Shown: positions 2,382 through 41,272, numbered from the stretch's first letter. The stretch is 64,000 bases of DNA from an uncultured Gammaproteobacteria bacterium (GCA_964583685.1 CAZOVJ010000001.1:4033-68032); one strand, 5' to 3'. Numbers and translations: made by a program. Notes: generated from the sequence alone by a model not told the origin.

Positions 2382-3688
2382 CAATAATTGAAAGATTGTT
2401 TTGCTCTTTGACATCTGAAGAGAAAGTCTACTTGCGCAGGCTTGCCTGCGTAGGTAGGTAGGTCGCAAATTTTATTAACGCAGACAGTGGATGACTTGGT
2501 CTTGTCCACCGAAGAAGGACGTACATGACGGCGAAACTCGTCGGGGAGGAGTCACGATCCTGTGATCCGGCGGTATCCGAATGGGGAAACCCATCCCGCT
2601 TCATAGCGGGATACCCTGTGGTAAAAATCTCGATTTATCGGGACATAGCTACAGGAGAGGGAACCTGGGGAACTGAAACATCTAAGTACCTAGAGGAAAA
2701 GAAATCAATAGAGATTCCGTTAGTAGCGGCGAGCGAAAACGGAAGAGCCTAAACCCTGTGCTTTGCACAGGAATGATGAATAGCCAATGATAAATGGCCA
2801 ATGTATGAAAAGCCTAAATGTTTTTGAGGATTGTATCTAGTACATTCCATTTAGCATTTGGCATTTATAATTTGTCATTCCCGCGCAGAGCGTGGGGGGT
2901 TGTGGGACTTCAAGATAAGAGTTATCGCGATAGCAGAATGACTTGGAATAGTCAACCAAAGAAAGTGAAAGTCTTGTAAGCGAAATCAAGGTAACCTTTA
3001 GAAGTATCCCAAGTACCACGGTGTAGATACTCTGTGGGAATCTGGGGGGACCATCCTCCAAGGCTAAATATGAGACAAGAACCGATAGCGCACTAGTACC
3101 GTGAGGGAAAGCTGAAAAGAAGGGCGAGACGCCCAGTGAAATAGAACCTGAAACTGTTTGCGGACAAGCCGAGAGAGTCCCGCACTGCGGGATGATCTCG
3201 TGCCTATTGAAGAATGAACCGGCGAGTGTCCGATGTTTGCATAGATTAACTCCGATAAATTGGAGGTAGTCGTAGGGAAACCGAGTCTGAATAGGGCGAT
3301 TAGTAAGTATTGGACGACCCGAAACCGGGCGAGCTAACCATGGGCAGGGTGAAATCCCGCGAAAGCGGGATGGAGGCCCGAACCCGTGTAGGTTGCAATC
3401 TGCTGGGATGACCTGTGGTTAGAGGTAATATGCCAATCGAGCCCGGAGATAGCTGGTTCTCCCCGAAAGGTCTATAGGGACCGTGCCCCGCAAAAACATC
3501 TTGGGGGTAGAGCACTGAATGGGCCATCGAGCGTAAGCGAGATGTTTCAATCAAACTCCGAATACCAAGATGGTACGTTGGGTAGACAGCCATATCGGGA
3601 TAAGCTGATATGACGAGAGGGAAACAACCCAGATTTTCGTCTAAGGCCTCTAAATTTACCTTAAGTTTGAAAGGAAGTCTTTTTTCGT

Positions 3689-3725
<37 letters not shown>

Positions 3726-4636
3726 TAAAGAAAGCGTAACAGCTCACTGGTCGATTATCCCGCTTAGCGGGATAGAGAAAGGGCGCCGAAAATTTATCGA
3801 GGATTAAAGGTAATGCCGAAGACAAAAATTCTCCGATTTTATCGGAGGGTGGTAGGGGAGCGCTCCGGCGACGGTGAAGGTCAAGCGGAAGCGAGGCTGG
3901 AGTCCGCCGGAGGTGAGAATGCCGGTATGAGTAGCGTACAACTCCGATGAGAATTCGGAGCGCCGAATGCCCAAGGTTTCCCCCGCTATGTTCGTCAACG
4001 GGGGGTTAGTCGGCACCTAAGGTAAGTCCCGATTTATATTGGGAGTAGTCGATGGACAAACGGTTAAAATTCCGTTACTTGTTTTGGATCGTCAACCTCG
4101 TGCTTTGCATGAGTAACTGGGGGTTGACTGGATAGGATAGCTAGAGCCAGGAGTTGAAGCTTGGTGTAAGCTGCAAAGTAGGGTCAGTTGGAAAATCCGC
4201 TGAAACGATTAATTGAGCAGTGATGCAAAATCCTAAGAGATTAGGGTGATTCTAGTGTGTTCAATCTACAAGAAAAGGCTCGCAGTGAGATCCAAAATAA
4301 GCCGTACCGCAAACCGACACAGGTGGGCTGGTAGAGAATACTAAGGCGAGCGAGAGAAGGATGCTTAAGGAACTCGGCAAACAAGCTACCCGTAACTTCG
4401 GGAGATGGGTTGCCCCGCTTAGCGGGGTCGCAGCGAAAGTTTGCTAGTCGGCTGTTTATCAAAAACACAGGTCCATGCAAAAGCGTAAGCTAAGGTATAT
4501 GGGCTGACGCCTGCCCAGTGCCGGTAAGTTAAAGGGAGGGGTTCCCCGACTTTGTCGGGATGGCTCTGAACCGAAGCTCCGGTAAACGGCAGCAATAACT
4601 ATAATTGTTCTACGGTAGCGAAGTCCCTTGTCGGGT

Positions 4637-5348
4637 AAACCAATCGGAATTTGCCCGAATATTGTGGCGACGCAATAATAGTAAACTGGCTAATATCGGT
4701 GAAAGCTAAATCTGTGCTACCATTTAATTACAGACATGCCAATACCGAGGGAACCCCCGCTTAGCGGGGGACTCCGTAACGACTGATCCGAAAGGTGAGG
4801 TCCCGATTTAATCGGGACAATACGCCAGCCCTTGTTTTGATATAATAAGCTATGGAGTTTACTTCGTATTTAACTGGGTTTGTAGATGGTGAAGGAACTT
4901 TTTCAGTTTCCTTTAACTATCGATCCAAGCTCAAAACTAATATCGAGGTAAGACCTAGTTTTTCTGTTTCTCAACACAAGAGAAATCTGAAAGTTTTAAG
5001 AGAAATTAGGGAATATTTTGGAGTAGGGGGAATCCGTTTTTCTAAGCGAGATCAAAACTACAAATATGAGGTTAGGTCCATTAAGGATCTAGTTACAAAG
5101 ATTATTCCTCATTTTGAAAAGTTTCCCCTTAGGACAAACAAACAAAAAGATTTTGAGCTTTTTGTTGATATTTGTAAGATGATATCTGCAAATTACCATT
5201 TAAATTCTTTGTATTTAGCCCGGATTATTGATAAGGCTTATAAAATGAATGAAAGTGGAAAACGCAGATACAAAAAACGCAAGCTCCTAAGGCTTATGGC
5301 AAGGTGAAGATATAGTCTAATCCATTGCGAAAGCAATCGGTAGAGTTG
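4637..5348 (+). mobile_element. group I intron in 23S at the helix-69 site (E. coli ~U1917|A1918) carrying a LAGLIDADG ORF
   Basis: Exon reads ...cttgtcgggt | intron | aagttccgacccgcacg, which rebuilds conserved GGGUAAGUUCCGACC. Exon ends in U and the intron ends in G, as expected for group I. About 712 nt. Confidence 0.75.
4852..5307 (+). CDS. LAGLIDADG homing endonuclease (single-motif, intron-encoded)
   Basis: ORF track 151 aa with motif LTGFVDGEGTF near the N-terminus. Lies wholly inside the 23S intron. Confidence 0.8.
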   Translation: MEFTSYLTGFVDGEGTFSVSFNYRSKLKTNIEVRPSFSVSQHKRNLKVLREIREYFGVGGIRFSKRDQNYKYEVRSIKDLVTKIIPHFEKFPLRTNKQKDFELFVDICKMISANYHLNSLYLARIIDKAYKMNESGKRRYKKRKLLRLMAR

Positions 5349-5979
5349 AAGTTCCGACCCGCACGAAAGGCGTCACGAACTAGCAACTGTCTTGAGCATT
5401 CACTCGGCGAAATTGCGATGGCTGTGAAGACGCGGCCTACTTGTACCAGGACGAAAAGACCCCGTGGAGCTTCACTGCAGTTTGACATTGCTTTCATACT
5501 TTTGAATTGTCAAGAATAGGAGGGAGTCCCGCTTTTGCGGGACGACAGTGTGATACCTCTCATTCAAGAGTGTGAGGCTTACTTGGGTCCGATGGAGACT
5601 CGGACAGGGAAAGTGTTAGATGGGCAGTTTTTCTGGGGCGGAACCCTGCTAAAAGGTAACGCAGGGGTACAAAGGTTGGCTTGGTCCGAATGGAAACCGG
5701 ACTGAAAGTATAAAGGTTTAAGCCAGCTTGACTGCGAGGCCGACGGGCCGAGCAGGTGCGAAAGCAGGTCTTAATGATCCTCCGATCCTCAATGGGTGAG
5801 GACGGAGCTTAACGGATAAAAGCTACCCCGGGGATAACAGAGTAGTCGCGCCCGAGAGTCCATATCGACGGCGCGGATCGCTACCTCGATGTCGGCTCAC
5901 CGCATCCTGGGGCCGGAGAAGGTCCCAAGGGTTGGTCTGTTCGCCCATTAAAGCGGTACGTGAGCTGGGTTCAGAACGT

Positions 5980-6727
5980 AAGTTACGTTGCGTTCTACAT
6001 CAGTAATGGTGTATGATGAAACCGACTAAAATCGGTGAAACCTAAGTCCGTTTTCCGAATGCGGATAAGGCAATACCGAGGGTAAGACAGAGGGTTGTTC
6101 TATGACAAAAGAAGAATTGGCTTACATTGCTGGTTTTTTAGATGGAGATGGTTGTATTATGCTTCAATTGATTTCTAGGCATGATTACAGGCTTGGGTAT
6201 CAGATAAGAGCAAGTATAGTTTTCTATCAAAAAACCAAGTACAGAAACTTTTTGGAGTGGTTAAAGAAGAAACTCAAGGACGGATATATACGGAACAGAA
6301 ACGATGGTATGAGTGAATATACCATTGTGGGTATATCTCCAGTAAGGGCGATATTAAAGCTTCTTTATCCATATTTGAGATTGAAAAAGAAACATGCAGA
6401 ACTTGCAGTTTCGGTTTTAGACCAAATGCCAAAAAGTGGTTGGCAGATGAAGCCAGAGCTTTTACTTAATTTATCTTATAAGGTAGACAAGTTTGCAAAA
6501 TTGAATTATTCAAAAAAGCGAACTAATACCTCTAAAAAAGTAAAGCAATTCTTGAAGTCACGAAACCTTCTGGATCCCGTAGAGACTGATCCGAAAGGAG
6601 AGATTCCGATTTAATCGGAATAATACGTCGGCTCCCGCTATTAGTTTTAGGGTATGGTTTTATAAACCTAAGCCCAAAAGCGGGATGAAGATATAGTCCA
6701 TGCCACACGAAAGTGGGGAATAACATG
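5980..6727 (+). mobile_element. group I intron in 23S at the I-CreI-type site (E. coli ~2593) carrying a LAGLIDADG ORF
   Basis: Exon reads ...ggttcagaacgt | intron | cgcgagacagttcgg, rebuilding AGAACGUCGUGAGACAGUUCGG. Exon ends in U, intron ends in G. Shares the 3' core block gatccgaaagg...gattccgatttaatcgg...gaagatatagtc with intron 1. Confidence 0.75.
6102..6614 (+). CDS. LAGLIDADG homing endonuclease (single-motif, intron-encoded)
   Basis: ORF track 170 aa with motif LAYIAGFLDGDGCI. Inside the second 23S intron. Confidence 0.8.
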   Translation: MTKEELAYIAGFLDGDGCIMLQLISRHDYRLGYQIRASIVFYQKTKYRNFLEWLKKKLKDGYIRNRNDGMSEYTIVGISPVRAILKLLYPYLRLKKKHAELAVSVLDQMPKSGWQMKPELLLNLSYKVDKFAKLNYSKKRTNTSKKVKQFLKSRNLLDPVETDPKGEIPI

Positions 6728-6868
6728 CGCGAGACAGTTCGGACTTTATCCGGTACAAGCGTAGAGTCTTGAGGAGAGCTGGCCTTAGTACGAGAGGACC
6801 AGGCTGGAGGAATCCCTAGTGTGCCGGTTGTCATGTCAATGGCAACGCCGGGTAGCTACATTCCTTAA

Positions 6869-6905
<37 letters not shown>

Positions 6906-7063
6906 CCAAGATAAGGACTCATCCCCGCTCAGCGGGGGAAGACCCCTGGGAGACTACCAGGTTAATCGGCAGGCGGTGGAAGTCCCGTAAGGGATTAAGC
7001 CTACCTGTGCGAATAGGTCGAAAGATTTTGCGAGCTCTTTCTCTTCAGATTCAAGGAGCAAAG

Positions 7064-10206: not shown

Positions 10207-10872
10207 ATGCAAGAAATAATTGTTTATCATGCTTATAACTGTTCTGATTATGCTCATGGAGAGCTCTGGCTAGCAGGCTATTCCTGGGCTAGGTTTTTAA
10301 GAAGAAGTAGCAAGATTTTGGCAGGCTTAGGCATCCTGGTTTTCCTCATTTCTTTTATACCCTCGTTTTACTATTCGTTCAAGCCAACAAAGGCGGTTGT
10401 TGTTTCTCAAGCAAAAGTGGAAGAAAACAGGCCAGTATATCAACCAAATTATAACTCTCAGCTTCCCAAACAAAATCGCTTGCTCATTAACTCTATTGGC
10501 GTAGATACCCCAATAAAGGAAGCATTGAACGAGAATAGTGAGGATGCCCTCAGGCAGGGAGCTTGGCGGGTTCCTGAGTTTGGCTCTCCGGCCAGCCGTG
10601 AACAACCGTTGATTTTGGCTGCCCATAGATTTGGCTATTTAAAGTGGAGTGATAGTTATCGCCGTCAGAATTCTTTTTACAATTTACCCAAATTAAAAAA
10701 AGGAGATGTTGTTAGGATTATTTGGAAACAGAGAAAATATGTTTACGAAATTTATGGCTTAGAAGAGGGGGAAGAGATTCTTGACTATAGTGCAGACCTT
10801 ATTCTTTATACCTGTAAATTTTTAGATTCATCGGTACGGATTTTTCGTTACGGCCGTTTGCTAGAAGTATAA
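10207..10872 (+). CDS. sortase-family transpeptidase (N-terminal membrane anchor)
   Basis: Catalytic triad context is present: LILAAHR (His), LILYTCKF (TLxTC-like Cys) and VRIFRY (Arg). Hydrophobic N-terminal segment. Confidence 0.65.
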   Translation: MQEIIVYHAYNCSDYAHGELWLAGYSWARFLRRSSKILAGLGILVFLISFIPSFYYSFKPTKAVVVSQAKVEENRPVYQPNYNSQLPKQNRLLINSIGVDTPIKEALNENSEDALRQGAWRVPEFGSPASREQPLILAAHRFGYLKWSDSYRRQNSFYNLPKLKKGDVVRIIWKQRKYVYEIYGLEEGEEILDYSADLILYTCKFLDSSVRIFRYGRLLEV

Positions 10873-15868: not shown

Positions 15869-16156
15869 ATGGCACTACCCAAATTTTTACAACCATATCT
15901 TGCCTCTTATGACCTGTCTAAGTTGGACATCAAAAAAGATAGAGAGTTAATTATCACCGAACTTCTCAATAAAGGAGATTCCAGAGCACTTTCCTGGTTG
16001 GGAAAAACCTGTTCCCGGAAAGAAATCAAAGAGGTCATCAGCAATCCTATAAAAGGGATGTGGATGGAAAGCGTTCTCTCTTATTGGCTGCGTATTTTGG
16101 ATATTAAGCTGCCAGAAAAGACTTTTAAACAGGCACTGATTAATTTACACCCTTAA
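15869..16156 (+). CDS. hypothetical small protein, probable cognate partner (antitoxin-like) of the downstream AbiEii-like nucleotidyltransferase
   Basis: 95 aa. Stop abuts the ATG of the next gene (taaATG), a typical toxin-antitoxin coupling. Confidence 0.35.
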   Translation: MALPKFLQPYLASYDLSKLDIKKDRELIITELLNKGDSRALSWLGKTCSRKEIKEVISNPIKGMWMESVLSYWLRILDIKLPEKTFKQALINLHP

Positions 16157-16801
16157 ATGAAAGACATCTATCCGGAGATTCTTGGTAAAAACCAAGCCCT
16201 TATTCTTCCCAGGTTTAGCTTTCTAAAAAAGAAAGGGTTTTATTTGGCTGGAGGTACTGCCCTAGCTCTTCAAGTTGGACATCGTAGTTCGGTTGATTTT
16301 GACTTTTATAATCCTCAAAAATTCGATATAAAAGAGCTCTATGATGAAATTGAAAAAGTCTTTGGGAAAAAGACCCAGAAAACTCTCCAAGAAAAAGATA
16401 CTCTTTTTTGTACAATCAATGACAAAGTAGGGGTATCTTTCTTTTACTACGACTATTCTCTAATTAAAAAACCCAGAGTAGTGAAGGGTATTCTTTTAGC
16501 TAGCATCGAAGATATCGCTGCCATGAAGCTCATTGCTATTAGCCAAAGGCCGCTTAAAAGAGATTATATTGACATCTTCTTTATTTTAAAAATTTTTAGT
16601 CTTAAAAAAATATTCTCTTTTGCTAAGAAAAAATATCCCAGGTTTAATGAATATTATGTTTTGCGAGCCTTAACTTATTTTGAAGACATAAAAGACGAAG
16701 GGGAGAGAGCGATTAAAATCTTGGCCAAAAATTTCTCCTGGGAAAAGGCGAAAAAGAAAATTTTTGAGGAAGTCAAGGATTATCAAATGGTGATGATATA
16801 G
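16157..16801 (+). CDS. nucleotidyltransferase of the AbiEii/AbiGii (DUF1814) toxin family
   Basis: Motif FYLAGGTALALQVGHRSSVDFDFY matches the GGTAL...R.S.D.D signature of AbiEii. Confidence 0.6.
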   Translation: MKDIYPEILGKNQALILPRFSFLKKKGFYLAGGTALALQVGHRSSVDFDFYNPQKFDIKELYDEIEKVFGKKTQKTLQEKDTLFCTINDKVGVSFFYYDYSLIKKPRVVKGILLASIEDIAAMKLIAISQRPLKRDYIDIFFILKIFSLKKIFSFAKKKYPRFNEYYVLRALTYFEDIKDEGERAIKILAKNFSWEKAKKKIFEEVKDYQMVMI

Positions 16802-16804
16802 GCT

Positions 16805-16832
16805 AATCCCGCTCAGCGGGATTTTTCTTTTT
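16805..16832 (+). terminator. rho-independent terminator (cccgc-tcag-gcggg hairpin plus T-run)
   Basis: aatcccgctcagcgggatttttctttt lies directly after the stop of the 16157-16801 gene. Confidence 0.7.
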
Positions 16833-17004: not shown

Positions 17005-17033
17005 TTGCATAGTAACAAATTTAGTCCTATAAT
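17005..17033 (+). promoter_or_regulatory. sigma70-type promoter of the rSAM-peptide-peptidase operon (TTGCAT-17-TATAAT)
   Basis: ttgcat 17005-17010, 17-nt spacer, tataat 17028-17033. AAGGAG RBS sits 8 nt before the ATG at 17078. Confidence 0.5.
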
Positions 17034-17077
17034 AGCTCTTAGCACATTAACACGATAACAATATAAGGAGAACTACT

Positions 17078-18382
17078 ATGTTCTTAGCATTGTCTGCACC
17101 GGTAACTACCCAGTGGGAGTTAACAGATTGGTGCAACCTTTTGTGTGTACACTGTTACAACTACTGGCGTGCCGGAAAAAGGAGGGGTAAGGTTACAATT
17201 ACACCACAGTTCCACGCAACATCACAGCGAGTTGTAAGTGAACTTGTAAAGAATGGGGTGTTTTCTGTAACTATTACTGGCGGTGAACCACTTGTGGTTC
17301 TTAATGATGTTTATCCATATCTTGAGTTGTTGAGGGACAATGGGATCCAAATTAATGTTAATTCAAATTTAACATTGATGACAGATAAAGTGGCCCAGAA
17401 ACTCCGCAGACTGGGAATCCGTGGGGTGTTAACCTCACTTATGACTGATGATCCTTCTCTCAATGACCAGCTAGCTTGTACGCCAGGGGCACACAAAAGG
17501 ACTGTTCGCGGCATAAAAATCGCACAAGAACATGGCTTCAAGGTCTTTGTTAACATGGTGGTAACAAAGAAAAACCTTAAACGTGTATTTCCAACTGCGT
17601 CATTTGTGGCGAGCTTGGGTGTTACCAACTTCTCTGCTACAAAAGCCGCGACGCCCGGTAATGCTTTTGATTTCAGTGAATATCGTCTATCCCGGGAGGA
17701 ATTCCACGAGATGCTTAGAGAACTTGTTCGCGCGAGAGACGAACTTGGCCTAAGTATTGATTCACTGGAATTTTATCCAGCCTGTGCCTTTCCCAACGCG
17801 GAGCTGGCAAAACCGTTCTCGCATCGCCGATGCACGGCAGGAAGAACAATGTGCACAATTGGATCCAACGGTGAAATTCGTCCATGTTCCCACGCACCAA
17901 TGAACTATGGAAATATCAACGAGGGATTAAAGGTTGTCTGGGAAAGGCTCAGCTCCTGGAGAACCGATGAATTTCTACCGGATGAATGTAGGGATTGCCC
18001 CCTCCGCTTCACTTGTGGGGGTGGCTGTAAAACTGAAGCTTACATAACAAATGGCAGCTTGAAATCGCTCGACCCCTACGGCAGTGGTATTCCAGTAATA
18101 GTGCAATATAGCATGGAAACACGAGACTTTCCTGCTCAGGCTATCTTCACGGTAAACCCCCTAGTACGAATGCGTCCTGAGTCATTCGGGGGCATTTTGT
18201 TCCGCAGGTCAAGGAGCTGGATACCGGTAACCCGAGACCTGTTTAGACTTGTAAAACTGTACAGGCAAACGGGCTTCACGGCACAATACCTGGCAGAAAC
18301 TCTGGGTACAAGTATCGAGGAAGTTCTCCCGACATTGACATTGTTGGTCAACAAGGATATAATCCTTGCCAACGGTTCGTGA
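17078..18382 (+). CDS. radical SAM enzyme with C-terminal SPASM domain (peptide-modifying maturase type)
   Basis: N-terminal CNLLCVHC (CX3CX2C) at residues ~19-26. C-terminal CRDCPLRFTCGGGC (CX2CX5CX3C SPASM motif), preceded by extra Cys (CTAGRTMC...C). 434 aa. Confidence 0.8.
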   Translation: MFLALSAPVTTQWELTDWCNLLCVHCYNYWRAGKRRGKVTITPQFHATSQRVVSELVKNGVFSVTITGGEPLVVLNDVYPYLELLRDNGIQINVNSNLTLMTDKVAQKLRRLGIRGVLTSLMTDDPSLNDQLACTPGAHKRTVRGIKIAQEHGFKVFVNMVVTKKNLKRVFPTASFVASLGVTNFSATKAATPGNAFDFSEYRLSREEFHEMLRELVRARDELGLSIDSLEFYPACAFPNAELAKPFSHRRCTAGRTMCTIGSNGEIRPCSHAPMNYGNINEGLKVVWERLSSWRTDEFLPDECRDCPLRFTCGGGCKTEAYITNGSLKSLDPYGSGIPVIVQYSMETRDFPAQAIFTVNPLVRMRPESFGGILFRRSRSWIPVTRDLFRLVKLYRQTGFTAQYLAETLGTSIEEVLPTLTLLVNKDIILANGS

Positions 18383-18418
18383 ACAACTTGTTGCTTGTTG
18401 TTAAGGAGGCTTAAGGCC

Positions 18419-18586
18419 ATGAACGAACCTTGCGAGGTGCTGCCAGGGATTGTATCTCTGTATGCAGCAGGTGCCTGTGATTGCGACGGAGCCGACTGCG
18501 ACTCAGCTGCCGGGCAAGACTCAGGTTGCGACAGTGGTTGCGTCTGTGATGCCGGAGGCGATTCCGGAGATTGTTACGGCGGTTAG
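18419..18586 (+). CDS. Cys/Asp/Gly-rich 55-aa peptide, candidate RiPP precursor (ranthipeptide/SCIFF-like) for the adjacent rSAM/SPASM enzyme
   Basis: ATG at 18419 is preceded by AAGGAGG (18403-18409). Peptide MNEPCEVLPGIVSLYAAGACDCDGADCDSAAGQDSGCDSGCVCDAGGDSGDCYGG has 8 Cys and 10 Asp in the C-terminal 37 residues. Sits 36 nt after the rSAM stop. The ORF track shows a longer TTG-initiated version from 18395. Confidence 0.6.
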   Translation: MNEPCEVLPGIVSLYAAGACDCDGADCDSAAGQDSGCDSGCVCDAGGDSGDCYGG

Positions 18587-18722
18587 TGCAAGATAGGCAC
18601 CAACACACAGAGAGCATCCATTGAGTTTAACTCAAAATCACACTCGTGATTGCCTAATAAGCTGGATGCTCCTCTTCATTTATAATGCGAGACATTATCC
18701 ATAGTATAATAAAATAATAAAA

Positions 18723-19385
18723 ATGATATTTGTTGTTAAATATTCAAAAGAAAAAGATATCTGGAATCATCTTAATACCAACTGGAAATTTTCATATCGA
18801 AAACACGGCAGGGAAGATATTCTGGAGAGAATCCGTAAAAGTTATCCTGATGAGTTCATCAACAATCTTCAGAAAGCCAAAAGCGAAAAGAGGGCAAGGG
18901 TGGTAATTAACAACTTTCTCGATACACTACCTAAGAGTTTCCACGACATTACACCGCTTATTGTACGAGGCGTTGAGCAGCTGCTCAACGAAAAGAAGAG
19001 TGAAATTGTGGGCAAATTGGAGAAAGTATTTGAAGAAAAGTTCCCCTTCAGTAATATCACTGTATATCTCTCAACTTGTCTTTTTTACCCTTACAGCTAT
19101 AAACAAAGATGGTACCTGTTAGGAAGAAACTCAAGCGAAGAGAATCACATAAAGATAACACTTCATGAACTAAACCACTTTATGTTCTACTATTATTATC
19201 CTCACTTGAAAAAAGATTTAGGAAAGGAAAAATACGAAGTATTGAAAGAAGCGCTGGCAATTTACACCAATCCGGAAGGAAACGACAAACCGGGAGTACA
19301 AAGGCTGGAAAGCTATTTTAAAGAAAATGCAAGCAAGTCATTAAAAAAACTTCTTGCAAAAAAGGACTGGAGAAAACTTTTATAG
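18723..19385 (+). CDS. putative zinc metallopeptidase (HExxH, gluzincin-like); candidate leader peptidase of the cluster
   Basis: ORF track 220 aa. LHELNHF motif with Glu residues 17-24 aa downstream. Last gene before the terminator at 19409. Confidence 0.45.
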   Translation: MIFVVKYSKEKDIWNHLNTNWKFSYRKHGREDILERIRKSYPDEFINNLQKAKSEKRARVVINNFLDTLPKSFHDITPLIVRGVEQLLNEKKSEIVGKLEKVFEEKFPFSNITVYLSTCLFYPYSYKQRWYLLGRNSSEENHIKITLHELNHFMFYYYYPHLKKDLGKEKYEVLKEALAIYTNPEGNDKPGVQRLESYFKENASKSLKKLLAKKDWRKLL

Positions 19386-19408
19386 TTTACCAGTCTTTGT
19401 TACAAGCT

Positions 19409-19437
19409 AATCCCGCTCAGCGGGATTTTTCTTTTTT
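19409..19437 (+). terminator. rho-independent terminator (same hairpin family as 16805)
   Basis: aatcccgctcagcgggatttttcttttttagg. Confidence 0.7.
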
Positions 19438-33019: not shown

Positions 33020-36000
33020 TTACTGCAAATCCACGCCCTGTATATTCACTCCCTGAAATTCAAAGGTGGCTGATTCTAGAGAAACAGTGGCGGTGGTACA
33101 CCAGCCTGAATAAAGAGTTTCTCCGCCAACGGTTTTATAAGCCCGGACCCGATAAGCATAGGTATTTGTTTGAGAAATAGTTGAGTCTTGATGAGAAGTA
33201 CTGTCAGCCGGCTTGGTTGTTAAGCTGGTAAATCCAGCAGCGCTCTCATTTCTTTGGATATCAAAGCCGGTTTCATCCCCGGAATTATCCTGCCATTTGA
33301 GATTAAGATAGGAATCGTCTACTGCTTCTTCAATAAGACAATGAGAAGGCGCATTCGGCTTTGCGGCCGTGGTGAAGGAATAAGGAGTTTCCTGGGTACT
33401 GCTCCATAAATTGGTGCCTGCAGGGTCAATGGCATATGACCGCCAATAATAGGTAGTGTTGTTGTCTAAGGCCGTTTGGATGGTGTAGGTTGCTTGGGTT
33501 CCCGAGGCATAGGCGGTTTCGGACTGAGCATCTTGGCCGCTCCAGCCAGTCTGAGATTCTGTTTGGTCAAAGGTTTGTAAATTGGCGCTGTCAAAAGTAT
33601 TGACAGTATCAAGTTCTATTTTATAGTGCAAATAATCACTGTCAGCATCAGTGGTTGTGGTTTTAAGGACAGTATAAAGTATCTGATTGCTGGCAGTGTC
33701 TGAGGGTAAATCAAGAGAAGGGGTATTAGGCTTGGTATTAAGGGAAAGCTGCCAGTCTTGAAGTTGGGGTGAGCCCCCGGAATAGGTCAGAGTTCCTTGG
33801 ACATAAAGAATGGGGTAGCTGGTTGTGTCAAGAGAGGTTAAATCAACCGGAGAAGTATCAAAGCCACTGGAATTATCAGTTAAGTCTCCATCAGGAACAA
33901 TCGTCGGCGTACCCGAATCATCATAATAAATTTTGTACTTTATATCTCCATTGGCTTCATCATCAGTGAACAACAATTGTTTCCAATGACTGGCAGAGGA
34001 ATAAATGTTGACGACAGTAATCGAGGTGCTCATAATGGTGCCGGAGCTATAGGTAGCTTGAATGTCGTCAAAATAAAAGGCAAAGGCGCTGTCGGCATTG
34101 GTTACCTTATAGGCGAATTTGGTGACCGCATCTCTGTCCGCTGCTGAGATTCCCGAGATATCCCAGGTTTTCTTTTCCCAAGTATCAGCCGAATTGATGG
34201 TGATATCATAGGTTTGCTCATCTGAGGCAGATTCTCCAAATTGGAAGCGCATAAATTGGCCGGTTCTATCAGAACGGGCCCAGAAAGTAATAAAAGAAGT
34301 GATTGAAAGGTCTGTAGCTGATTTGGTCAGGGTGGCCGTCTCATTGAGGGCATCGCCCGATGGAGAACCGGTAGTTGAGGCAGCAGGGGATGTAGTGCCA
34401 GTGATGGAATCAGCCTCAACCCTGATACGGCCACTACCGCCACTTCCACCAGCCCCTCCCCAAACGTATCCGCTTCCTCCTGAACCCCCACCGGCCTTAA
34501 CAAGACTAGAGCCCAAGGTGGCGGTGTTTGCTTGGAGGAGAATAGAACCGCCACTGCCACCGCCTCCGCCCGCTGTGTAGGGTTCGCTTGGCTGACCTGG
34601 CCAGCCGTTCCTACCATTAGCCTTGATATATCCAGAGACTGAGATTGTGTCAGTACCTATAAATACTATTCCTCCAGCGTTTCCTCCATTTCCACCACTC
34701 CTAGGGTCCTTAGAGCCTCCTTCACCTCCACCTGATCCGAGATAAAGTTTATCAAGAGAACTACTGCCATAGGTATGGCCACCAGCCCCGACCCCTCCGC
34801 CTTGAGTACAAGGTTTTCCGTTACTACCATTTGTTCCATAACCGCCACCACCGCCACCACTTGCATTATGAGCAGCGGGAACATGTTTGTCTCCACCACC
34901 ACCACCACCTTGTTGTTTATAAGACATAGATTTGCTTCCCGTTCCACTGGTTGATTCTCCCTGGTAACCATAGTTGTCACCGCTGCTTCCTGAACCACCC
35001 CGGTATCCTTTTTCGTAGGTATCGATTGTTCCGGTTACTGTTACTGTACCGTTGGCCCTAAAAGCAATAAGTCCGCCATAGGTCCCATTCCAACTGTTGA
35101 CAGTTAAGGTGATGCCATTATTGATAGTTACATTGGTGTAATTAGGAACGCGTTGAACGACTACATTCTGTCCGGTTAAATCCGAGTTGGAAGACTCACC
35201 ATATGTTTTCTGGATGTTGATATTACAGGTGATGGTAGCAGAGGATATAGAAGATACTTGACAAAACTCATAATTGCCAACGTTTGTATATGTAGAAGAA
35301 GAATCCCGGAGATTGATTAAGATTATTTCATCGTCGCTCGAAATAGAATTAGACAAGGACGAAGCAGCTGTCCCATCAGTTCCAGTGCCGGTAACTGTTA
35401 TTATGTTTGTTCCAATACTTGATACTTGGAAGGCTTCAGCGTCGGCTACCGATCTGCCTGAGGCGATAGGATCAGTATTTAGGTTCTTATTACTAGAGAC
35501 TGTTATTGCACCGTCAGCGCCGTCGCCGGTAAAGTTGTTAGAAAGCTTCACCGAACCGGTTCCTTCTTGTTTGAGACTTGTTTCTTGTTCAACTAAAAGG
35601 TCGCCTGTGTCTGAACTGACCCAATTGGAAGCAGTATCGGCATTGTCAATTTGAAATGATGATAGGGTATAGACATAGTTGCTGCTATCATCAACCGTCG
35701 CTCCATTAGCCAAAGTATCGGTAGAAAATTGGTCGGCGTGAGTCTGAAACCAGGCATCGTTGGTCAGGGAGGTATCAATGGTAAAAGAACGTACGCTTGA
35801 CCAGTTGCCATAGGTATTGCTTCCTCCCGGGTCCTTAGCATGGACTTTATAGAAGTAAGTAGTATTGTTGGTCAAAGCAGCCTGGAATGTGTAGGAAATC
35901 GTATCACCGGAATTGAAGGGGTCATCATCACCGCCATCATCTACATTGGTAAAACCAGGATTAGTATCCGAAACCGCGCTTGAGGGAGAGGGGAAACTAG

Positions 36001-39000
36001 TATCCGTATCCCATTGAATTTGATAGGTTAGATTATCACTCTCGGGATCAGTAGCCGCGAACCTAATTTCCGGAGTAGTGTCGTTGGTCTTGAGATTGTC
36101 ATGAAGATAGGCATCGCTAAGTGTTGTTGCACCCGGAGGATTGTTCTCTGTATAGTTCAAAGTAACACTGGTGAGCGAAGGAGAAGGGGAGTGATTGCTG
36201 ATAATAGCCCGATATTGGAAATAGCGCTGGGCAGTGGAGGAAATGGAAGAGCCTCCGGGAGTAGCCATGTAATCGCTGGCGCTTTCAAAATCATCTAGCC
36301 AAACAGTTCGGCCCTCATCAGCATTAGTCACCCGTAAAGTCAGCTGGGTGCAGGTATCAAGTTGATTGTCGGGGGGGTCGCTGATATCCCAATATTCTCT
36401 TTGCCACTTAAAGACAGAGGCATTAGAAGTAAAGCAGTGGGTGTCAGAACCTCCGCAGACCCCTGTGTCGGGGTTGGGCACAGTCCCGGTCCAAGAATCA
36501 ACCGTTACCGCGCCGGTCGAGGTGGTGATTGAACTGACTGTTCCTTGGGCAATGTATTCGGTTCCGCCATAATTCTCGCGAACTATAATTTTGTCGTCTT
36601 CGTAAAGATTGCTGCCTTTATCTGTTAAGCCAAAATGAGTGGCATCAATAGTGATAGAGGTATCGGTTTTAGCATTAGCTTCCGAGGTGCCCTTGATATC
36701 ATTAGCATCTAGTTTGGCAGCAAAATCAATGGTTATCGGGTGAGTTCTTTGGCCAATCTCATAGGCCTGCCGAATCTGAGCAGCCGTGCGGGCCGTATCT
36801 GAAATTCTCACCTCATCAATGGTACCGTCAAAGGGATTTTCCACCCCGCCTGTTGAACTTTTCCTGGCTCCAATCCAGAGAGGATAATTATTAGCTGTGG
36901 GGGTGCCGTTATCAGTAGCAGACGCGACTTCTGCTCCATTTATGTATAATTTGGATGTGTTTCCAGAGTTGTCAAAGACGCCTACAATATAGTACCACTC
37001 ACCTGTATTAGGAGTTAAGGTATAGGTGACGGCAGCTCCTCCAGTGGGAGACCCGTAAAATCTAAAATTATCTGTGGTAGTCCAATCCAGGCCTCCATTA
37101 TAGACATCACCCGATTTTCCCTTGGCGTAAATTACTTGATTGGAGCTGGTAGTGTCGAAACGCACCCACGCTTCTGTTGTATATGAATCCGTCATGTCTA
37201 AAGAAGCTGAGTCGTTTACATTTATATAATTACTACTGCCATTAAGATCCCGGGCTTTGCCAATTTTTCCTTGAAGAAAAGTTGTGCCGCTTGGATAACC
37301 ATGATTTCCGTTTCCTGAAGAGTCTTTAATTTCATCTAAACTGTGAATTTCGATTGATTCCCAATCGAAATTAATTTGGCTAGAATAGAATTTGAAATAA
37401 CTAGGATTAATCGCCGTAGTATTAGTAGTGGTAATGTCTTTTCTAACTGTTCCATCAATAGCTAATTTCATTGAGCTTGGTGTCCACCACATTTCTATAG
37501 TGTATTCATTACCATTTGTATCTACAGTGCCTCTTTCTGCTGAGGAATCCACAGTTGAACTTCCAACAACCTTGTAGACCCCTTGGGTTGAATAACCAGA
37601 ACCTTGCCAATTAAATTGATAGTAATTATTAGCATCTTGGAAAAGATAAAGGGACTGAACATTGTCTGTAGGATAATCCAATCTTTTGATAAAAACAATT
37701 TTCGCATAGCCGCTGGTGGGAATATCAGCATAAGCAGTGGCATTTTCAGCATCATTATCTCCAGTTAGGACATGCAACCAGTGGTTGCTAGAATCCCAAG
37801 CGTGAGAGTTAGTCGGAGCATTTGTGTCAACAGTTTCCCAACTGTATCTACCGGTAGTATCAGTTAAAAAATAGTCATAAAAAATGGGTTGGTTTTCTTC
37901 CAGGTGCCACAATCCTTTAGTATTACCGTCTGGTTGGTTATTAGTATAGGCTGATTCGCCGATAGTGGTTTCAAGGTAAGTTCCCGGCCGGTCAGCTGCT
38001 ATATAAAAAGGAAGTTTACCTTTACTGGAAAGGTCAGTGGAGGAGATTGTTCGGCCCAGACGATGGTCGCGGCCAGCCCGATACGCCTCGCTAATCTCCT
38101 CGGCACTGCGGGCGACATTGGAGATACGGACTTCGTCGATGATACCGTCAAACTCGTCAGTGTAGCCTGAATAATGTCGTTTTCCTATTAAAAGGTTAGT
38201 TACTGTAGAATCCATTGTTCCATGTGTTCCGGAAGTTGTTCCTGAATTGTCTAATACTCCATCAATGTAAATTTCAAAAGAATCACCGTTTCTTTGACCT
38301 GCTAAGTAGTGCCACTCATTGTCTGTTATTGTTGATGAAGAGTCGAGATAGATCTGGTTGTCTCCAGTGTCAGTGTAGGAAAATCGAATGTCGTCATCGC
38401 TATGTATGAGCATAAAAAACTGTCTATTTCCACTACCATCATCGTCCTTTCCTATTATCATGTCGTTTGTATTAAAGGAGTTTCTTTTCACCCAAGCCTC
38501 TATTGCATAATTGCCACTTCCAAAATCCCAAATATTATCATCTCCGCAATCAACATAATCATCCGTCCCATTAAAATCCCTTGCCTTGCCAAAGATACTT
38601 TCAACAGGTTCCGGGCCAGGAGCAGTGCCGTAAAGTTCTCCATCATTGTTATTAGCTGTTTCATCAAAAACATCATCTCCTTCCAAATCGCCGTTGGTTT
38701 CATCCAGATGCCAGAGGGCAACGGTATGACTATCTACTTGTGGGGCACCGAGTATGGTTTTTAGTGAGCCGTTTCCCTCAATAGCTAGGCTGGAGGAAGA
38801 AGTAGCTATTGGGACTCCTTCCCAAATCGAAGCAGAGGGAGTGGCCCAGTTGAGAGGATTATCCATGCTGTCAATTTGGGTTTCGTTGGCCGTTGGTTTC
38901 CAGGCTTCCCAGGACGAATTATCAGCGCTGGTTCGAGTTTGGAATTCAATTTGTCCAGACTGGTAGTTGGAGAGAATTTCATCTGCGCCTAGGGCGCGGG

Positions 39001-41272
39001 AGTAGATGCGGAAGGAGTCGATAATGCCATTGAAGTAACCACCGGGGCTTCCTCCGGAATTCCATCTACCAATATCTCTGGTGTTTGTTGTTATAGTGCC
39101 TCCAGCATCATTATCACTGCCTTCAAGCACTCCGTTTAGATAAACATACACATTGGCTCCATCTCTTACACCTACAGCGTGATACCAAGTGCCATTTTGT
39201 AAAGTTGTAGTTCCTTGGGCTAAAGCAGAATTTCCTCCGGTGTCGTTTCTAGTGATAAAAGCAATGTTGCTACTCGGTGTATAGAGTTGACCCAAAATCG
39301 AATCGCTATCTGTTGTGCTTCTTTGGGCAAAAATACTTTTTGTTGTACTAGGATCAGATGTTCTAAACCAGGCTTCTACAGTATAAGTAGTTCCAGATAA
39401 TGGATTGTTGGAGAGTGAAACATAATCATTACTTCCGTCAAACATCAATGCTGCCGGATTATTTTGAGGCCAGCGGCCGTTATTGGTTGTCCAGCCGCTT
39501 CCGGCAACAACATCCTGGCCTGAGGTATTAGAGAAACTATTGAGTGTACCAGTGTTTCCTTGACCAGATGAGTCAGCTGCAGAAGTATCTGAAGTCTCGT
39601 TGAACTTCCAAAAGCCTGCAAGATTACTAGACGAATATGGAGTCTCGCCATCGCCGGTTTGGACGCCTGACTCTGTCCATTCAAGTGAGTCAAGGCTGGC
39701 TACTAATGTTCCCAGGTCAATTGAATCCGAGGTATAAACAGCATATGGCCGGCGCTGGGCAGCAAGCTTAATTTCTTCCGGTGTCCGGGCAATATTGGAG
39801 ATGCGAACTTCGTCAATAAGGCCATCAAAACGATAAGAAGCCCAACTTGTTCCTCCAGCTCCAAGGTGTAGTGCTCCCCCGTTGGTACCTGCTGTTGCTG
39901 TGACAGTTTTTACAGATTTACCATCTACATAGAAAATGCCTGTAGTCCCCGAACGAGTATAAGCCACATGTTTCCATTCGCCGTCTTCTTTAATTTCATG
40001 TCCACTGTAAGCCCAAGTGCCTCCACCCCAAAAACTTAATTCATTAGTGCTGTTATTTCTTAGAGCGAAAATGAAGCCGTTACTGCCACCAGTATATGTT
40101 CCTACAATACCCTTCGAATCGTCGGCAATATTGTCTGGGTTGATCCAAACTTCTACTGTATAGTCACCTGATAGGGTGAATTGATCGCTATCCGAAATAG
40201 AAACATAGTCGGTATCAGCATCGAAACTACCAGAATGAGACCCGAGCTTGGCAGGGGTTGAAAATGTGGGGGTTCCTTGAGCAGTACCATTGTGGCCATT
40301 TTTAGAACTATCATTCCAGCTGTTATTCATATGCCAAAGGCCGACGGTGTGCCCGTCGGCCGGTAGCTCTTGATAATAGGTTTCCAGGCTGGGAGAGGCG
40401 CCTGAACCAGTGTCTTTTACCCGGTTGAATTGGCCGTTAGCAAACTCGCTTGATTCATCATGAACAACCGTTGGATCAATGAGTACAGGAAATACTCGTT
40501 CCGGAGAATTAAGCCAATTCGGGTCAATGGTAATAATGGCGCTATAATTTTTTGTTTCTAAATCCCTTTTGATTAAGATTTGTACATTATCGGTCTGAGA
40601 AGTCTTTGCATCATAAGCAAAAGGCTTTTCAAAATGGAAGAGGTAATTGCCATCTTTATCAAAAAAAGCGGTGCCGCTAATATTTTCGGTGATATATTGG
40701 GGAATTGCCCCTTCTGTTTTTAAGCCAAAGGGAAACCTAACAATTTGAGAAGGCTGGTTGATGATTATTTCTTCTTTGACTCCCAGGGGAATAGTTTGAT
40801 ATTCAAAGTCTATGTTTGGATATACATTTTTAAAAAGCAGTTTTTTATCTTCTTTAATTGGAACTTGCAGTTTTTTATTGACGCCGGCAGGAACAAAAGC
40901 GATTTTATTGTTCTCGGAAGTGCTAAATTCAACAATTGGCAGATTTGAATTTTTATCGCCTAACTGAACCTGAAATTTTTTGGATTTGGCCGTATAAAGA
41001 TAAAGCGAGTTTTGGGCAGCCATTTTCAGTTTAGGGGCCCGAGGAATCGAAGCCCATTTTTTATAAAGGGGAGCAATAATGGCGATAAGTAAAATACTAA
41101 TTCCGAAAGTAAGGGCTATTCTTTTCTTTCTCCGGCTGCTATGTTTGCATTTCCAGACTACCAGCTTGAGCAAATAATGGCAGTATTTGAGATAATAAGA
41201 AAAATAGGCAGGAATTTTCTTCTTACTGATTTTACCTCTAGGGTATACGCGAGGCCTTGACATATTAGTCAT
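33020..41272 (-). CDS. giant cell-surface protein (2750 aa): N-terminal TM anchor, at least 5 LamG/concanavalin-like domains, Gly-rich beta-rich region, C-terminal FN3-like domain
   Basis: ORF track. Recurrent LamG signatures (FDG.IDEVRISN.ARS/T..EI about five times). Gly runs (GGGGGGDKH, GGGGGGYGTNG). FN3-like WQDNSGDETGFDIQR near the C-terminus. Confidence 0.8.
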   Translation of the reverse strand: MTNMSRPRVYPRGKISKKKIPAYFSYYLKYCHYLLKLVVWKCKHSSRRKKRIALTFGISILLIAIIAPLYKKWASIPRAPKLKMAAQNSLYLYTAKSKKFQVQLGDKNSNLPIVEFSTSENNKIAFVPAGVNKKLQVPIKEDKKLLFKNVYPNIDFEYQTIPLGVKEEIIINQPSQIVRFPFGLKTEGAIPQYITENISGTAFFDKDGNYLFHFEKPFAYDAKTSQTDNVQILIKRDLETKNYSAIITIDPNWLNSPERVFPVLIDPTVVHDESSEFANGQFNRVKDTGSGASPSLETYYQELPADGHTVGLWHMNNSWNDSSKNGHNGTAQGTPTFSTPAKLGSHSGSFDADTDYVSISDSDQFTLSGDYTVEVWINPDNIADDSKGIVGTYTGGSNGFIFALRNNSTNELSFWGGGTWAYSGHEIKEDGEWKHVAYTRSGTTGIFYVDGKSVKTVTATAGTNGGALHLGAGGTSWASYRFDGLIDEVRISNIARTPEEIKLAAQRRPYAVYTSDSIDLGTLVASLDSLEWTESGVQTGDGETPYSSSNLAGFWKFNETSDTSAADSSGQGNTGTLNSFSNTSGQDVVAGSGWTTNNGRWPQNNPAALMFDGSNDYVSLSNNPLSGTTYTVEAWFRTSDPSTTKSIFAQRSTTDSDSILGQLYTPSSNIAFITRNDTGGNSALAQGTTTLQNGTWYHAVGVRDGANVYVYLNGVLEGSDNDAGGTITTNTRDIGRWNSGGSPGGYFNGIIDSFRIYSRALGADEILSNYQSGQIEFQTRTSADNSSWEAWKPTANETQIDSMDNPLNWATPSASIWEGVPIATSSSSLAIEGNGSLKTILGAPQVDSHTVALWHLDETNGDLEGDDVFDETANNNDGELYGTAPGPEPVESIFGKARDFNGTDDYVDCGDDNIWDFGSGNYAIEAWVKRNSFNTNDMIIGKDDDGSGNRQFFMLIHSDDDIRFSYTDTGDNQIYLDSSSTITDNEWHYLAGQRNGDSFEIYIDGVLDNSGTTSGTHGTMDSTVTNLLIGKRHYSGYTDEFDGIIDEVRISNVARSAEEISEAYRAGRDHRLGRTISSTDLSSKGKLPFYIAADRPGTYLETTIGESAYTNNQPDGNTKGLWHLEENQPIFYDYFLTDTTGRYSWETVDTNAPTNSHAWDSSNHWLHVLTGDNDAENATAYADIPTSGYAKIVFIKRLDYPTDNVQSLYLFQDANNYYQFNWQGSGYSTQGVYKVVGSSTVDSSAERGTVDTNGNEYTIEMWWTPSSMKLAIDGTVRKDITTTNTTAINPSYFKFYSSQINFDWESIEIHSLDEIKDSSGNGNHGYPSGTTFLQGKIGKARDLNGSSNYINVNDSASLDMTDSYTTEAWVRFDTTSSNQVIYAKGKSGDVYNGGLDWTTTDNFRFYGSPTGGAAVTYTLTPNTGEWYYIVGVFDNSGNTSKLYINGAEVASATDNGTPTANNYPLWIGARKSSTGGVENPFDGTIDEVRISDTARTAAQIRQAYEIGQRTHPITIDFAAKLDANDIKGTSEANAKTDTSITIDATHFGLTDKGSNLYEDDKIIVRENYGGTEYIAQGTVSSITTSTGAVTVDSWTGTVPNPDTGVCGGSDTHCFTSNASVFKWQREYWDISDPPDNQLDTCTQLTLRVTNADEGRTVWLDDFESASDYMATPGGSSISSTAQRYFQYRAIISNHSPSPSLTSVTLNYTENNPPGATTLSDAYLHDNLKTNDTTPEIRFAATDPESDNLTYQIQWDTDTSFPSPSSAVSDTNPGFTNVDDGGDDDPFNSGDTISYTFQAALTNNTTYFYKVHAKDPGGSNTYGNWSSVRSFTIDTSLTNDAWFQTHADQFSTDTLANGATVDDSSNYVYTLSSFQIDNADTASNWVSSDTGDLLVEQETSLKQEGTGSVKLSNNFTGDGADGAITVSSNKNLNTDPIASGRSVADAEAFQVSSIGTNIITVTGTGTDGTAASSLSNSISSDDEIILINLRDSSSTYTNVGNYEFCQVSSISSATITCNINIQKTYGESSNSDLTGQNVVVQRVPNYTNVTINNGITLTVNSWNGTYGGLIAFRANGTVTVTGTIDTYEKGYRGGSGSSGDNYGYQGESTSGTGSKSMSYKQQGGGGGGDKHVPAAHNASGGGGGGYGTNGSNGKPCTQGGGVGAGGHTYGSSSLDKLYLGSGGGEGGSKDPRSGGNGGNAGGIVFIGTDTISVSGYIKANGRNGWPGQPSEPYTAGGGGGSGGSILLQANTATLGSSLVKAGGGSGGSGYVWGGAGGSGGSGRIRVEADSITGTTSPAASTTGSPSGDALNETATLTKSATDLSITSFITFWARSDRTGQFMRFQFGESASDEQTYDITINSADTWEKKTWDISGISAADRDAVTKFAYKVTNADSAFAFYFDDIQATYSSGTIMSTSITVVNIYSSASHWKQLLFTDDEANGDIKYKIYYDDSGTPTIVPDGDLTDNSSGFDTSPVDLTSLDTTSYPILYVQGTLTYSGGSPQLQDWQLSLNTKPNTPSLDLPSDTASNQILYTVLKTTTTDADSDYLHYKIELDTVNTFDSANLQTFDQTESQTGWSGQDAQSETAYASGTQATYTIQTALDNNTTYYWRSYAIDPAGTNLWSSTQETPYSFTTAAKPNAPSHCLIEEAVDDSYLNLKWQDNSGDETGFDIQRNESAAGFTSLTTKPADSTSHQDSTISQTNTYAYRVRAYKTVGGETLYSGWCTTATVSLESATFEFQGVNIQGVDLQ

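Follow-up and report, generated by a model that had tools for sequence, protein, structure and literature searches.

What do three adjacent genes make together when they encode a radical S-adenosylmethionine (SAM) enzyme with a SPASM domain, a 55-residue peptide rich in Cys and Asp, and a protein with an HExxH motif? The genes lie in a 64,000-nucleotide (nt) stretch of DNA from an uncultured Gammaproteobacteria bacterium (GCA_964583685.1, CAZOVJ010000001.1:4033-68032), referred to here as the window, within which all positions are 1-based. The cassette under study spans 17005-19437, measures 2.4 kb and holds these three genes with no accessory factors (Table 1). It is a genuine, self-contained, conserved and mobile cassette for a ribosomally synthesised and post-translationally modified peptide (RiPP), which very probably converts the Cys/Asp peptide into a cross-linked product; it belongs to a family undescribed in the literature and curated libraries searched. 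The preferred reading, with a probability of roughly 0.6, is a compact, horizontally mobile unit in which the leader of the precursor binds a RiPP recognition element (RRE), the Cys residues are cross-linked, the leader is removed and read-through into the third gene is attenuated.

The layout had been described before in a sequence-only reading of the same DNA, and the promoter, the three genes and the terminator were each recovered where that reading had placed them. The radical-SAM motif CX3CX2C was located at C19/C23/C26 of the first protein and the SPASM motif CX2CX5CX3C at C304/C307/C313/C317. The small open reading frame (ORF) begins 36 nt past the stop codon of the radical-SAM gene, behind its own AAGGAGG, and HELNH is present in the third protein as claimed. 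Two further features, an internal consensus promoter (18335-18363) and a 39-nt direct repeat around the cassette, had escaped the earlier reading.

The gene set recurs widely. The enzyme has 349 full-length homologs at E<=1e-10, of which the nearest among the matches listed shares only 64% identity, and when one genome per species was scanned, relatives turned up in at least 266 species. Host labels were read from 80 loci kept out of these relatives, and gene-context counts were made on 83 loci. An automated search picked a Cys-rich ORF of 38-84 amino acids (aa) beside the enzyme gene in 67 of the 83 loci; four picks were spurious and were discarded, leaving about 63. Most of these ORFs share the strand of the enzyme gene and lie 0-100 nt downstream of it. 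The predicted co-occurrence of a small Cys-rich ORF with this radical-SAM clade in other genomes is therefore borne out, and the claim of an intact RiPP locus agrees with the conserved gene set, the selected precursor and the RRE-bearing enzyme. Candidate phyla radiation (CPR) bacteria, which had been suspected as hosts, account for the majority of the related loci (54 of 80 labelled CPR/Patescibacteria); eight are labelled only 'bacterium', three come from bins of DPANN-type archaea and 15 carry other labels. Archaeal origin of these three loci could not be verified, and the flanks of one of them (L074) carry no archaeal markers. Flanking genes vary from locus to locus (e.g. EF-Tu/S10, rplD, NYN/epimerase). 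Neither Pfam nor NCBIfam holds a curated family for the enzyme clade, the peptide or the third gene, and no description of the family was found in the full-text literature searched.

Comparison of the precursor gene with its ortholog in locus L091 gave proportions of non-synonymous (pN) and synonymous (pS) differences of 0.094 and 0.664, respectively, corresponding to a dN/dS of about 0.06. The pN of the precursor is lower than that of the enzyme (0.22) and of gene 3 (0.24). These values argue for a real gene under strong purifying selection. The 38-residue C-terminal core holds 7 Cys and 9 Asp (24% Asp). Eight Cys and ten Asp had been counted earlier, and the eighth Cys turns out to be leader position 5, which is not kept in orthologs. 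All seven core Cys are kept in the orthologs P0196 (78% identical) and L094. The leader motif reads (L/A)PG(I/V)V in the subgroup of the window and G-Φ-x-(S/T)-Φ across the wider family. The C-termini are hypervariable and Cys-rich, with subtypes including CDxCD, CDCFDSGDCFDxCDRAPD, CDCYDCDFNCEECD, CYCNCGCACxVTG and poly-Pro/Cys. Among 69 unique precursors the cores are composed of 25.5% Cys and 20% Asp, Asp follows Cys directly (+1) in 44% of cases, and a core contains on average 6.2 Cys and 6.1 acidic residues. Cys is the sole universally conserved feature of the cores. The precursor matched no precursor model in NCBIfam or Pfam, and its core, ACDCDGADCDSAAGQDSGCDSGCVCDAGGDSGDCYGG, lacks a regular CX3D spacing. 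It has no SCIFF motif either, in agreement with the earlier reading.

Several related loci add observations on the peptide. In locus L003 (5490-5585) the core is a 12-nt tandem repeat encoding (G-C-D-x)n, which suggests that cores grow through repeat expansion. In Levybacteria-type loci (L055, L058, L060 and L073, at about 6050-6350) the Cys-rich ORF comes after the HExxH gene. Its core is Pro-rich, with PPPPC repeats and a final CYGG, a substrate for this enzyme clade that differs strongly from the others. Public gene calls place a wrong-frame ORF over the precursor in L087 (5740-5874, equal to window positions of about 18462-18596) and in L094 (444-689), and the true peptide is missing there. 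One homolog is labelled 'NfuA' in public records.

The enzyme belongs to the radical-SAM superfamily by its Pfam score (PF04055, 72.5 bits against a cut-off of 29.5), and C19, C23 and C26 together with the GGE motif G68-G69-E70 are invariant in an alignment of 25 homologs. The SPASM domain (PF13186) is likewise recognised, with 29.8 bits against a cut-off of 21.5. Such domains are defined by a seven-Cys pattern, C-x9-15-G-x4-C ... CX2CX5CX3C ... C, which ligates two auxiliary 4Fe-4S clusters. Within this pattern C236, C252, G265-x4-C270 and C304/C307/C313/C317 are invariant across the 25 homologs. A profile built from these homologs retrieved SkfB, PqqE, SuiB, MoaA, TigE and anSME from the PDB, all at the level of domains only; SkfB was the best sequence match (5e-23) and CteB aligned over the SPASM region only. 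One enzyme homolog is labelled 'AdoMet-dependent heme synthase' in a public record. The C-terminal domain was modelled with confidence as a three-stranded beta-sheet followed by a three-helix winged-helix bundle. The model matches known RREs, several of which have been solved with bound leaders, and the enzyme is accordingly predicted to carry an RRE at its C-terminus. Structure prediction was needed for this step and for gene 3, as sequence-only searches for the RRE and for the gene 3 family returned weak, sub-threshold matches only.

Gene 3 encodes a member of a small family (470 cluster representatives at E<=1e-3 among 1.84 billion). Its AlphaFold model is confident (predicted local distance difference test, pLDDT, 95.3) and shows a gluzincin fold of the MA clan, which is thermolysin-like, with an HExxH helix and a Glu ligand on the next helix. 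H148, E149, H152 and E176 are invariant in the family and form the gluzincin ligand pattern, with the spacing HExxH-x23-E. Every one of the top 50 Foldseek matches is a Zn peptidase, and the lanthipeptide leader peptidase EryP is among them. By an iterated family hidden Markov model (HMM), a gene-3-type ORF adjoins the enzyme gene in 40 of the 83 loci. About 17 further loci have a different HExxH ORF in this place, which brings the loci with an adjacent HExxH gene to about 57; all 12 of the different ORFs that were scanned match Pfam Peptidase_MA_2, with the motif HExxH...WLxEG(I/L)AxY. Alignment of the two types with hhalign paired HELNH...KEALAIY of gene 3 with that motif over the active-site stretch only, at a probability of 5%. 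An MA-clan-type protein thus accompanies the enzyme clade consistently, and this pattern speaks for a role in leader removal. The earlier proposal of an HExxH protein as partner is supported by its conservation and by the predicted fold with H148/H152/E176.

A branched hairpin (18612-18671) separates the precursor from gene 3, with a folding energy of -28.8 kcal/mol and a z-score of -3.2 against shuffled sequences. It consists of a 9-bp outer stem, GAGCATCCA/TGGATGCTC (18612-18620 and 18663-18671), and three inner hairpins. Equivalent structures lie 3' of the precursor gene in L091, L094 and L007, where they are followed by clean T-runs. In the RNAalifold consensus five of 22 pairs show compensatory double changes and the outer stem contains no broken pair. 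Other loci have a simple GC hairpin and a T-run at the equivalent place. The hairpin, noted before from the window, is therefore a conserved RNA element, with covariation and counterparts in three other loci. An Rfam scan of the locus found no riboswitch or other known RNA at the gathering threshold. Promoter-like sites (>=10/12) occur at the position of the internal promoter in 8 of 59 related loci against a background of 3.6%, a mild enrichment among relatives. An excess of precursor transcripts over enzyme transcripts is a common RiPP layout, and the hairpin and internal promoter would fit it.

A 39-nt direct repeat, with two copies only in the window and 0 expected by chance, stands on either side of the cassette, and short-read assemblies break exactly at this repeat (contigs L088 and L090). 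An orthologous cassette in a Patescibacteria contig (L007, JBMNNJ010000001.1) lies between 728-nt direct repeats that are 100% identical (3001-3728 and 6335-7062); these carry decayed transposase fragments (a weak rve_3 match) in an arrangement like a composite transposon. The cassette in L074 is surrounded by an IS66 transposase, an integrase and Bro-N/ORF6N genes. Because of the flanking direct repeats and the varied, mobile-element-rich contexts, the cassette appears to be an accessory, transferable unit. Horizontal acquisition had been argued in the sequence-only reading from a GC-richer radical-SAM gene. Mobility stands on the repeats and contexts, and the argument from composition was dropped: the gene is typical for the window (GC 0.467, GC at third codon positions 0.451), within one standard deviation of the window genes (0.428 +/- 0.047), and the AT-rich outliers are its neighbours, AbiEii (GC 0.338) and gene 3 (0.357).

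Other searches bear on the same subject. The predicted empty-site junction and the repeat gave 0 exact matches in metagenome contigs, where the source contig itself also failed to match. When the upstream AbiEii protein was searched for by exact match, nothing came back besides the source contig and one short contig broken off at the repeat. A 2633-nt Logan contig (L088), equal to the cassette bounded by the repeat, was considered as a sign of excision and rejected, since a loop in a de Bruijn graph gives the same product.

Table 1. Features of the cassette and its borders.
Feature	Position	Strand	Basis or remark
Left copy of 39-nt direct repeat	16794..16832	+	Includes terminator hairpin 16805-16823 of the upstream AbiEii gene; 3' 31 nt identical to right copy
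Cassette promoter, TTGCAT-17-TATAAT	17005..17033	+	Promoter scan reads TTTGCA-18-TATAAT, 10/12
Shine-Dalgarno AAGGAG of radical-SAM gene	17065..17070	+	7 nt upstream of ATG 17078
Radical-SAM/SPASM gene, 434 aa; predicted peptide maturase with C-terminal RRE	17078..18382	+	Pfam Radical_SAM 6e-20, SPASM 7e-07
Predicted C-terminal RRE, residues ~345-434 of the enzyme	18110..18379	+	PqqD-like beta-sheet and winged helix (structure model)
Internal promoter, TTGACA-17-TATAAT, within 3' end of radical-SAM gene and upstream of precursor gene	18335..18363	+	12/12
Shine-Dalgarno AAGGAGG of precursor gene	18403..18409	+	9 nt upstream of ATG 18419
Precursor peptide, 55 aa; leader ~1-18 with conserved LPGIVSL; core ~19-55, ACDCDGADCDSAAGQDSGCDSGCVCDAGGDSGDCYGG, 7 Cys	18419..18586	+	
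Branched RNA hairpin with degenerate T-rich tail; probable leaky terminator/attenuator	18612..18682	+	Fold, covariation
Gene 3, HExxH zincin-fold protein, 220 aa; HELNH at residues 148-152 (nt 19164-19178), E176 (nt 19248-19250)	18723..19385	+	Probable leader peptidase
Right copy of 39-nt direct repeat; cassette terminator	19398..19436	+	Hairpin 19409-19427 and T-run (to 19437)

Taken together, these features suggest the following mechanism. The promoter at 17005 would drive the enzyme and precursor genes together, with a probable further contribution from the precursor's own promoter at 18335. The leader motif of the precursor, (L/A)PG(I/V)V(S)L, would bind the C-terminal RRE of the radical-SAM/SPASM enzyme, and SAM-derived radical chemistry with the help of the auxiliary Fe-S clusters would then cross-link the seven core Cys. 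The likeliest products would be intramolecular thioethers to neighbouring residues, with Asp as the obvious acceptor, and the roughly 1:1 ratio of Cys to acidic residues fits a pairing of this kind. The gluzincin-fold HExxH protein would remove the leader, presumably by hydrolysis, and the branched hairpin would limit read-through into its gene so that precursor transcripts are in excess. Thioether formation on the core Cys is considered most likely, with PapB as a precedent, and the ranthipeptide-like Cys-to-Asp link suggested earlier would be one form of it; alpha-carbon links of the sactipeptide type, or other chemistry, may be formed instead. The product could serve as a metal-binding, signalling or antagonistic peptide.

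Several observations weigh against this reading. The last Cys of the SPASM pattern (consensus DPYC; residues 334-336, nt 18077-18085) is Gly in the window enzyme and is missing in about 10 of the 25 aligned homologs, which may leave one auxiliary cluster with three Cys ligands only. The NCBIfam scan of the enzyme gave 67 weak matches, none of them close to a cut-off. The best were AhbD (TIGR04545, 126.9 bits) and NirJ2 (TIGR04055, 121.9 bits), both against a cut-off of 500 bits, followed by GeoRSP (104 bits) and MftC (TIGR03962, 103.2 bits against 265); the pyrroloquinoline quinone (PQQ) model TIGR02109 gave 82.2 against 381. Models of known thioether maturases stay as far under their cut-offs (PapB, NF047865, 61.3 bits against 340; AlbA, NF012164, 63.3 against 850; StsB, NF045574, 61.3 against 625), and the SCIFF maturase model is not among the best 25 matches. 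Of the subfamily assignment that had been proposed for checking, the radical-SAM and SPASM domains are confirmed, and membership of the PapB, SCIFF/CteB, AlbA or other maturase families is not (61 against 340 bits for PapB). The enzyme thus lies outside every curated family searched, so that its chemistry is not assignable from homology. Seven related cores of the CYCNCGCAC type contain no Asp or Glu, and the poly-Pro/Cys cores likewise lack acidic residues, so that Asp is not a universal acceptor. Gene 3 matched nothing in Pfam, NCBIfam or the PDB sequences, even when all 39 aligned members were scanned at E<=10, and Foldseek found no significant match to it in the PDB (best E 0.22). No obvious Shine-Dalgarno sequence is seen ahead of gene 3. 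The tail after the window hairpin, CTCTTCATTT, is a degenerate T-run and the terminator scan made no call there; termination at this hairpin is therefore probably partial. Lastly, the cassette contains no exporter or transporter gene and no immunity gene.

Some of these points are shared by a different account of the chemistry, in which the enzyme still works within a RiPP cassette and forms no Cys thioethers. It would instead install C-C or C-O cross-links, epimerise residues or oxidise Cys, and the Cys would act as metal ligands or disulfides in a metallothionein-like peptide or metallophore. This account is rather unlikely, and it has several points on its side. SkfB, PqqE, SuiB, TigE and anSME are about equally distant from the enzyme and AhbD, NirJ2 and MftC are its best NCBIfam matches, which leaves homology uninformative; the CxC/CxxC spacing with interleaved Asp, Asn and Glu resembles that of metal-binding peptides; some cores lack acidic acceptors; and exporter and immunity genes are absent from the cassette. 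It has more difficulty with Cys alone being universally conserved in the cores, and with the average Cys:acidic ratio of about 1:1 expected for Cys-acceptor pairing. SPASM maturases that act on Cys-rich precursors have so far mostly been thioether synthases (of sactipeptides and ranthipeptides, and QhpD), and this precedent also speaks for thioethers.

The third protein can be read differently as well, as an oxygenase dependent on Fe(II) and alpha-ketoglutarate (αKG) that tailors the peptide, for example by β-hydroxylating Asp, as in ChlH, BpmH and PflC/PosC. This is judged unlikely. CPR bacteria are mostly anaerobic fermenters without a tricarboxylic acid cycle, and chemistry that depends on O2 and αKG is poorly suited to such hosts. 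The model of the αKG-dependent HExxH family (TIGR04267/IPR026337) matches none of the 39 gene 3 family members, even at E<=10, and some 17 related loci pair the enzyme with a protein identifiable as Peptidase_MA_2, bearing the gluzincin motif HExxH...WLxEG. In favour of an oxygenase, H148, H152 and E176 would equally form a 2-His-1-carboxylate site, and the precursor core (9 Asp in 38 residues, 24%) would offer many potential hydroxylation sites. The αKG-dependent HExxH enzymes adopt a zincin-like fold and were for a long time taken for peptidases in annotations; they often occur as partners or fusions of radical-SAM enzymes, and the RiPP residues that they hydroxylate are Asp, His and Gln (PMC12636437). 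A leader peptidase is the likelier reading of gene 3.

It is improbable that the enzyme belongs to cofactor or primary metabolism, either in heme synthesis of the AhbD/NirJ type or in making a peptide-derived redox cofactor like PQQ or mycofactocin. The best NCBIfam matches (AhbD 127, NirJ2 122 and MftC 103 bits) and the public heme synthase label point in this direction, and the set of radical-SAM enzyme, RRE, peptidase and small peptide parallels MftA/B/C/E. The scores are, however, far under their cut-offs (127 against 500, 103 against 265), and heme, PQQ and mycofactocin genes were not found nearby; the genes around the cassette encode AbiE toxin-antitoxin components and unknown proteins. 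The cores differ greatly in length, Cys number and Cys spacing from one subfamily to another, whereas cofactor precursors keep invariant reacting residues, and the patchy distribution and mobile locus also argue against such a role. That the small ORF is a chance frame, with the radical-SAM gene merely beside an unrelated hypothetical gene, is effectively refuted by its retention beside the enzyme in about 63 loci, its dN/dS of about 0.06, its strong Shine-Dalgarno sequence and the RRE on the enzyme, even though some gene callers miss the precursor ORF or choose a wrong frame (as in the JGI record of the source contig and in L094).

A bolder version of the RiPP cassette can be entertained tentatively. 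The family might constitute a new RiPP class confined to ultra-small episymbiotic CPR bacteria, and possibly DPANN archaea, producing densely cross-linked acidic Cys/Asp peptides with a new topology such as adjacent Cys-Asp thioethers, made with a C-terminal RRE and a new zincin family and acting in metal capture or in the interaction of symbiont and host.

Directly upstream of the cassette is a DUF6922 and AbiEii pair (15869-16801), a type IV toxin-antitoxin or abortive infection system. A role of the cassette in anti-phage defence, considered because of this neighbour, was set aside: PADLOC gave only a generic match of the radical-SAM core to pVip (55 bits) and none for gene 3. Elsewhere in the window, the 23S rRNA match (2464-6059) spans 3596 nt against a model of 2925 nt and has a LAGLIDADG endonuclease ORF inside (4852-5307); a second LAGLIDADG ORF (6102-6614) separates the 23S gene from the 5S gene. 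The 1.9 kb of the window upstream of the 23S gene contain no 16S gene, and a tRNA-Ile lies there on the opposite strand. Two giant ORFs on the minus strand (33020-41272 and 41950-49731) encode 2750 and 2593 aa, with an NYN-domain gene between them (41325-41897), and an ORF with an integrase N-terminal domain is found at 49859-50368. A sortase-domain gene (10207-10872) is consistent with a Gram-positive-like envelope, a trait frequently described in CPR bacteria.

A large part of bacterial diversity falls within the CPR, whose members carry tiny genomes and to which very little specialised metabolism is attributed. Predicted graspetides are the sole CPR RiPPs found in the literature searched (PMC8939145). 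Recurrence in at least 266 species, strong selection and movement between genomes suggest that CPR bacteria devote resources to a peptide that is secreted or binds metal. The cassette offers an enzyme clade of unassigned chemistry together with natural Cys/Asp-rich substrates for cross-linking biocatalysis, and its uncurated zincin family could help to separate true HExxH peptidases from HExxH oxygenases. Because the cassette is small (2.4 kb, three genes), it is directly testable.

Among known systems, the αKG-dependent HExxH RiPP hydroxylases (ChlH, BpmH, PflC/PosC; IPR026337) share with the cassette an HExxH motif on a zincin-like fold and radical-SAM RiPP partners, and act on Asp (PMC12636437); they differ in their family HMM, which none of the 39 gene 3 relatives matches. 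The MA-clan gluzincins (M1 family and Peptidase_MA_2; EryP/AplP) share HExxH and a downstream Glu on the next helix, and within the M1 family EryP is a known leader peptidase of a RiPP, a lanthipeptide. Gene 3 differs from them in having no family match at the level of sequence, a bare catalytic domain of 220 aa and the spacing HExxH-x23-E. Mycofactocin (MftA/B/C/E) and PQQ (PqqA/D/E/F) use the same parts, i.e. a small peptide, a radical-SAM/SPASM enzyme, a PqqD-type RRE and a peptidase. In the present cassette, in contrast, the RRE is fused to the C-terminus of the enzyme, and the cores are hypervariable and Cys-rich, without the invariant C-terminal GVY or E-x3-Y.

Thioether pathways also offer parallels. 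Sactipeptide synthases (AlbA, SkfB, ThnB, StsB) likewise combine radical-SAM/SPASM (or twitch) domains with an RRE and act on Cys-containing precursors, and their alpha-carbon thioethers would account for cores without Asp or Glu. The window enzyme scores 61-63 bits against the AlbA and StsB models, whose cut-offs are 625-850, its domain order is reversed, with the RRE at the C-terminus, and the cores here are far Cys-denser and more acidic. Ranthipeptide systems (PapB/freyrasin and CteB/SCIFF thermocellin) and QhpD/QhpC share a radical-SAM/SPASM enzyme acting on a short Cys-rich precursor, abundant Cys with Asp or Glu, and small clusters. The RRE is N-terminal in CteB, unlike the C-terminal RRE of the window enzyme. 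QhpD is one precedent for Cys-Asp thioethers. Another is PapB, which links Cys to Asp or Glu through thioethers and tolerates Cys-Xn-Asp with n = 0-6 (PMC9413430). The cassette departs from these systems in an enzyme that is not PapB by HMM, in cores without CX3D periodicity or a SCIFF motif, in a partner from a new zincin family and in its CPR hosts. Although it lies outside every curated family, the system appears to work like a sactipeptide or ranthipeptide pathway.

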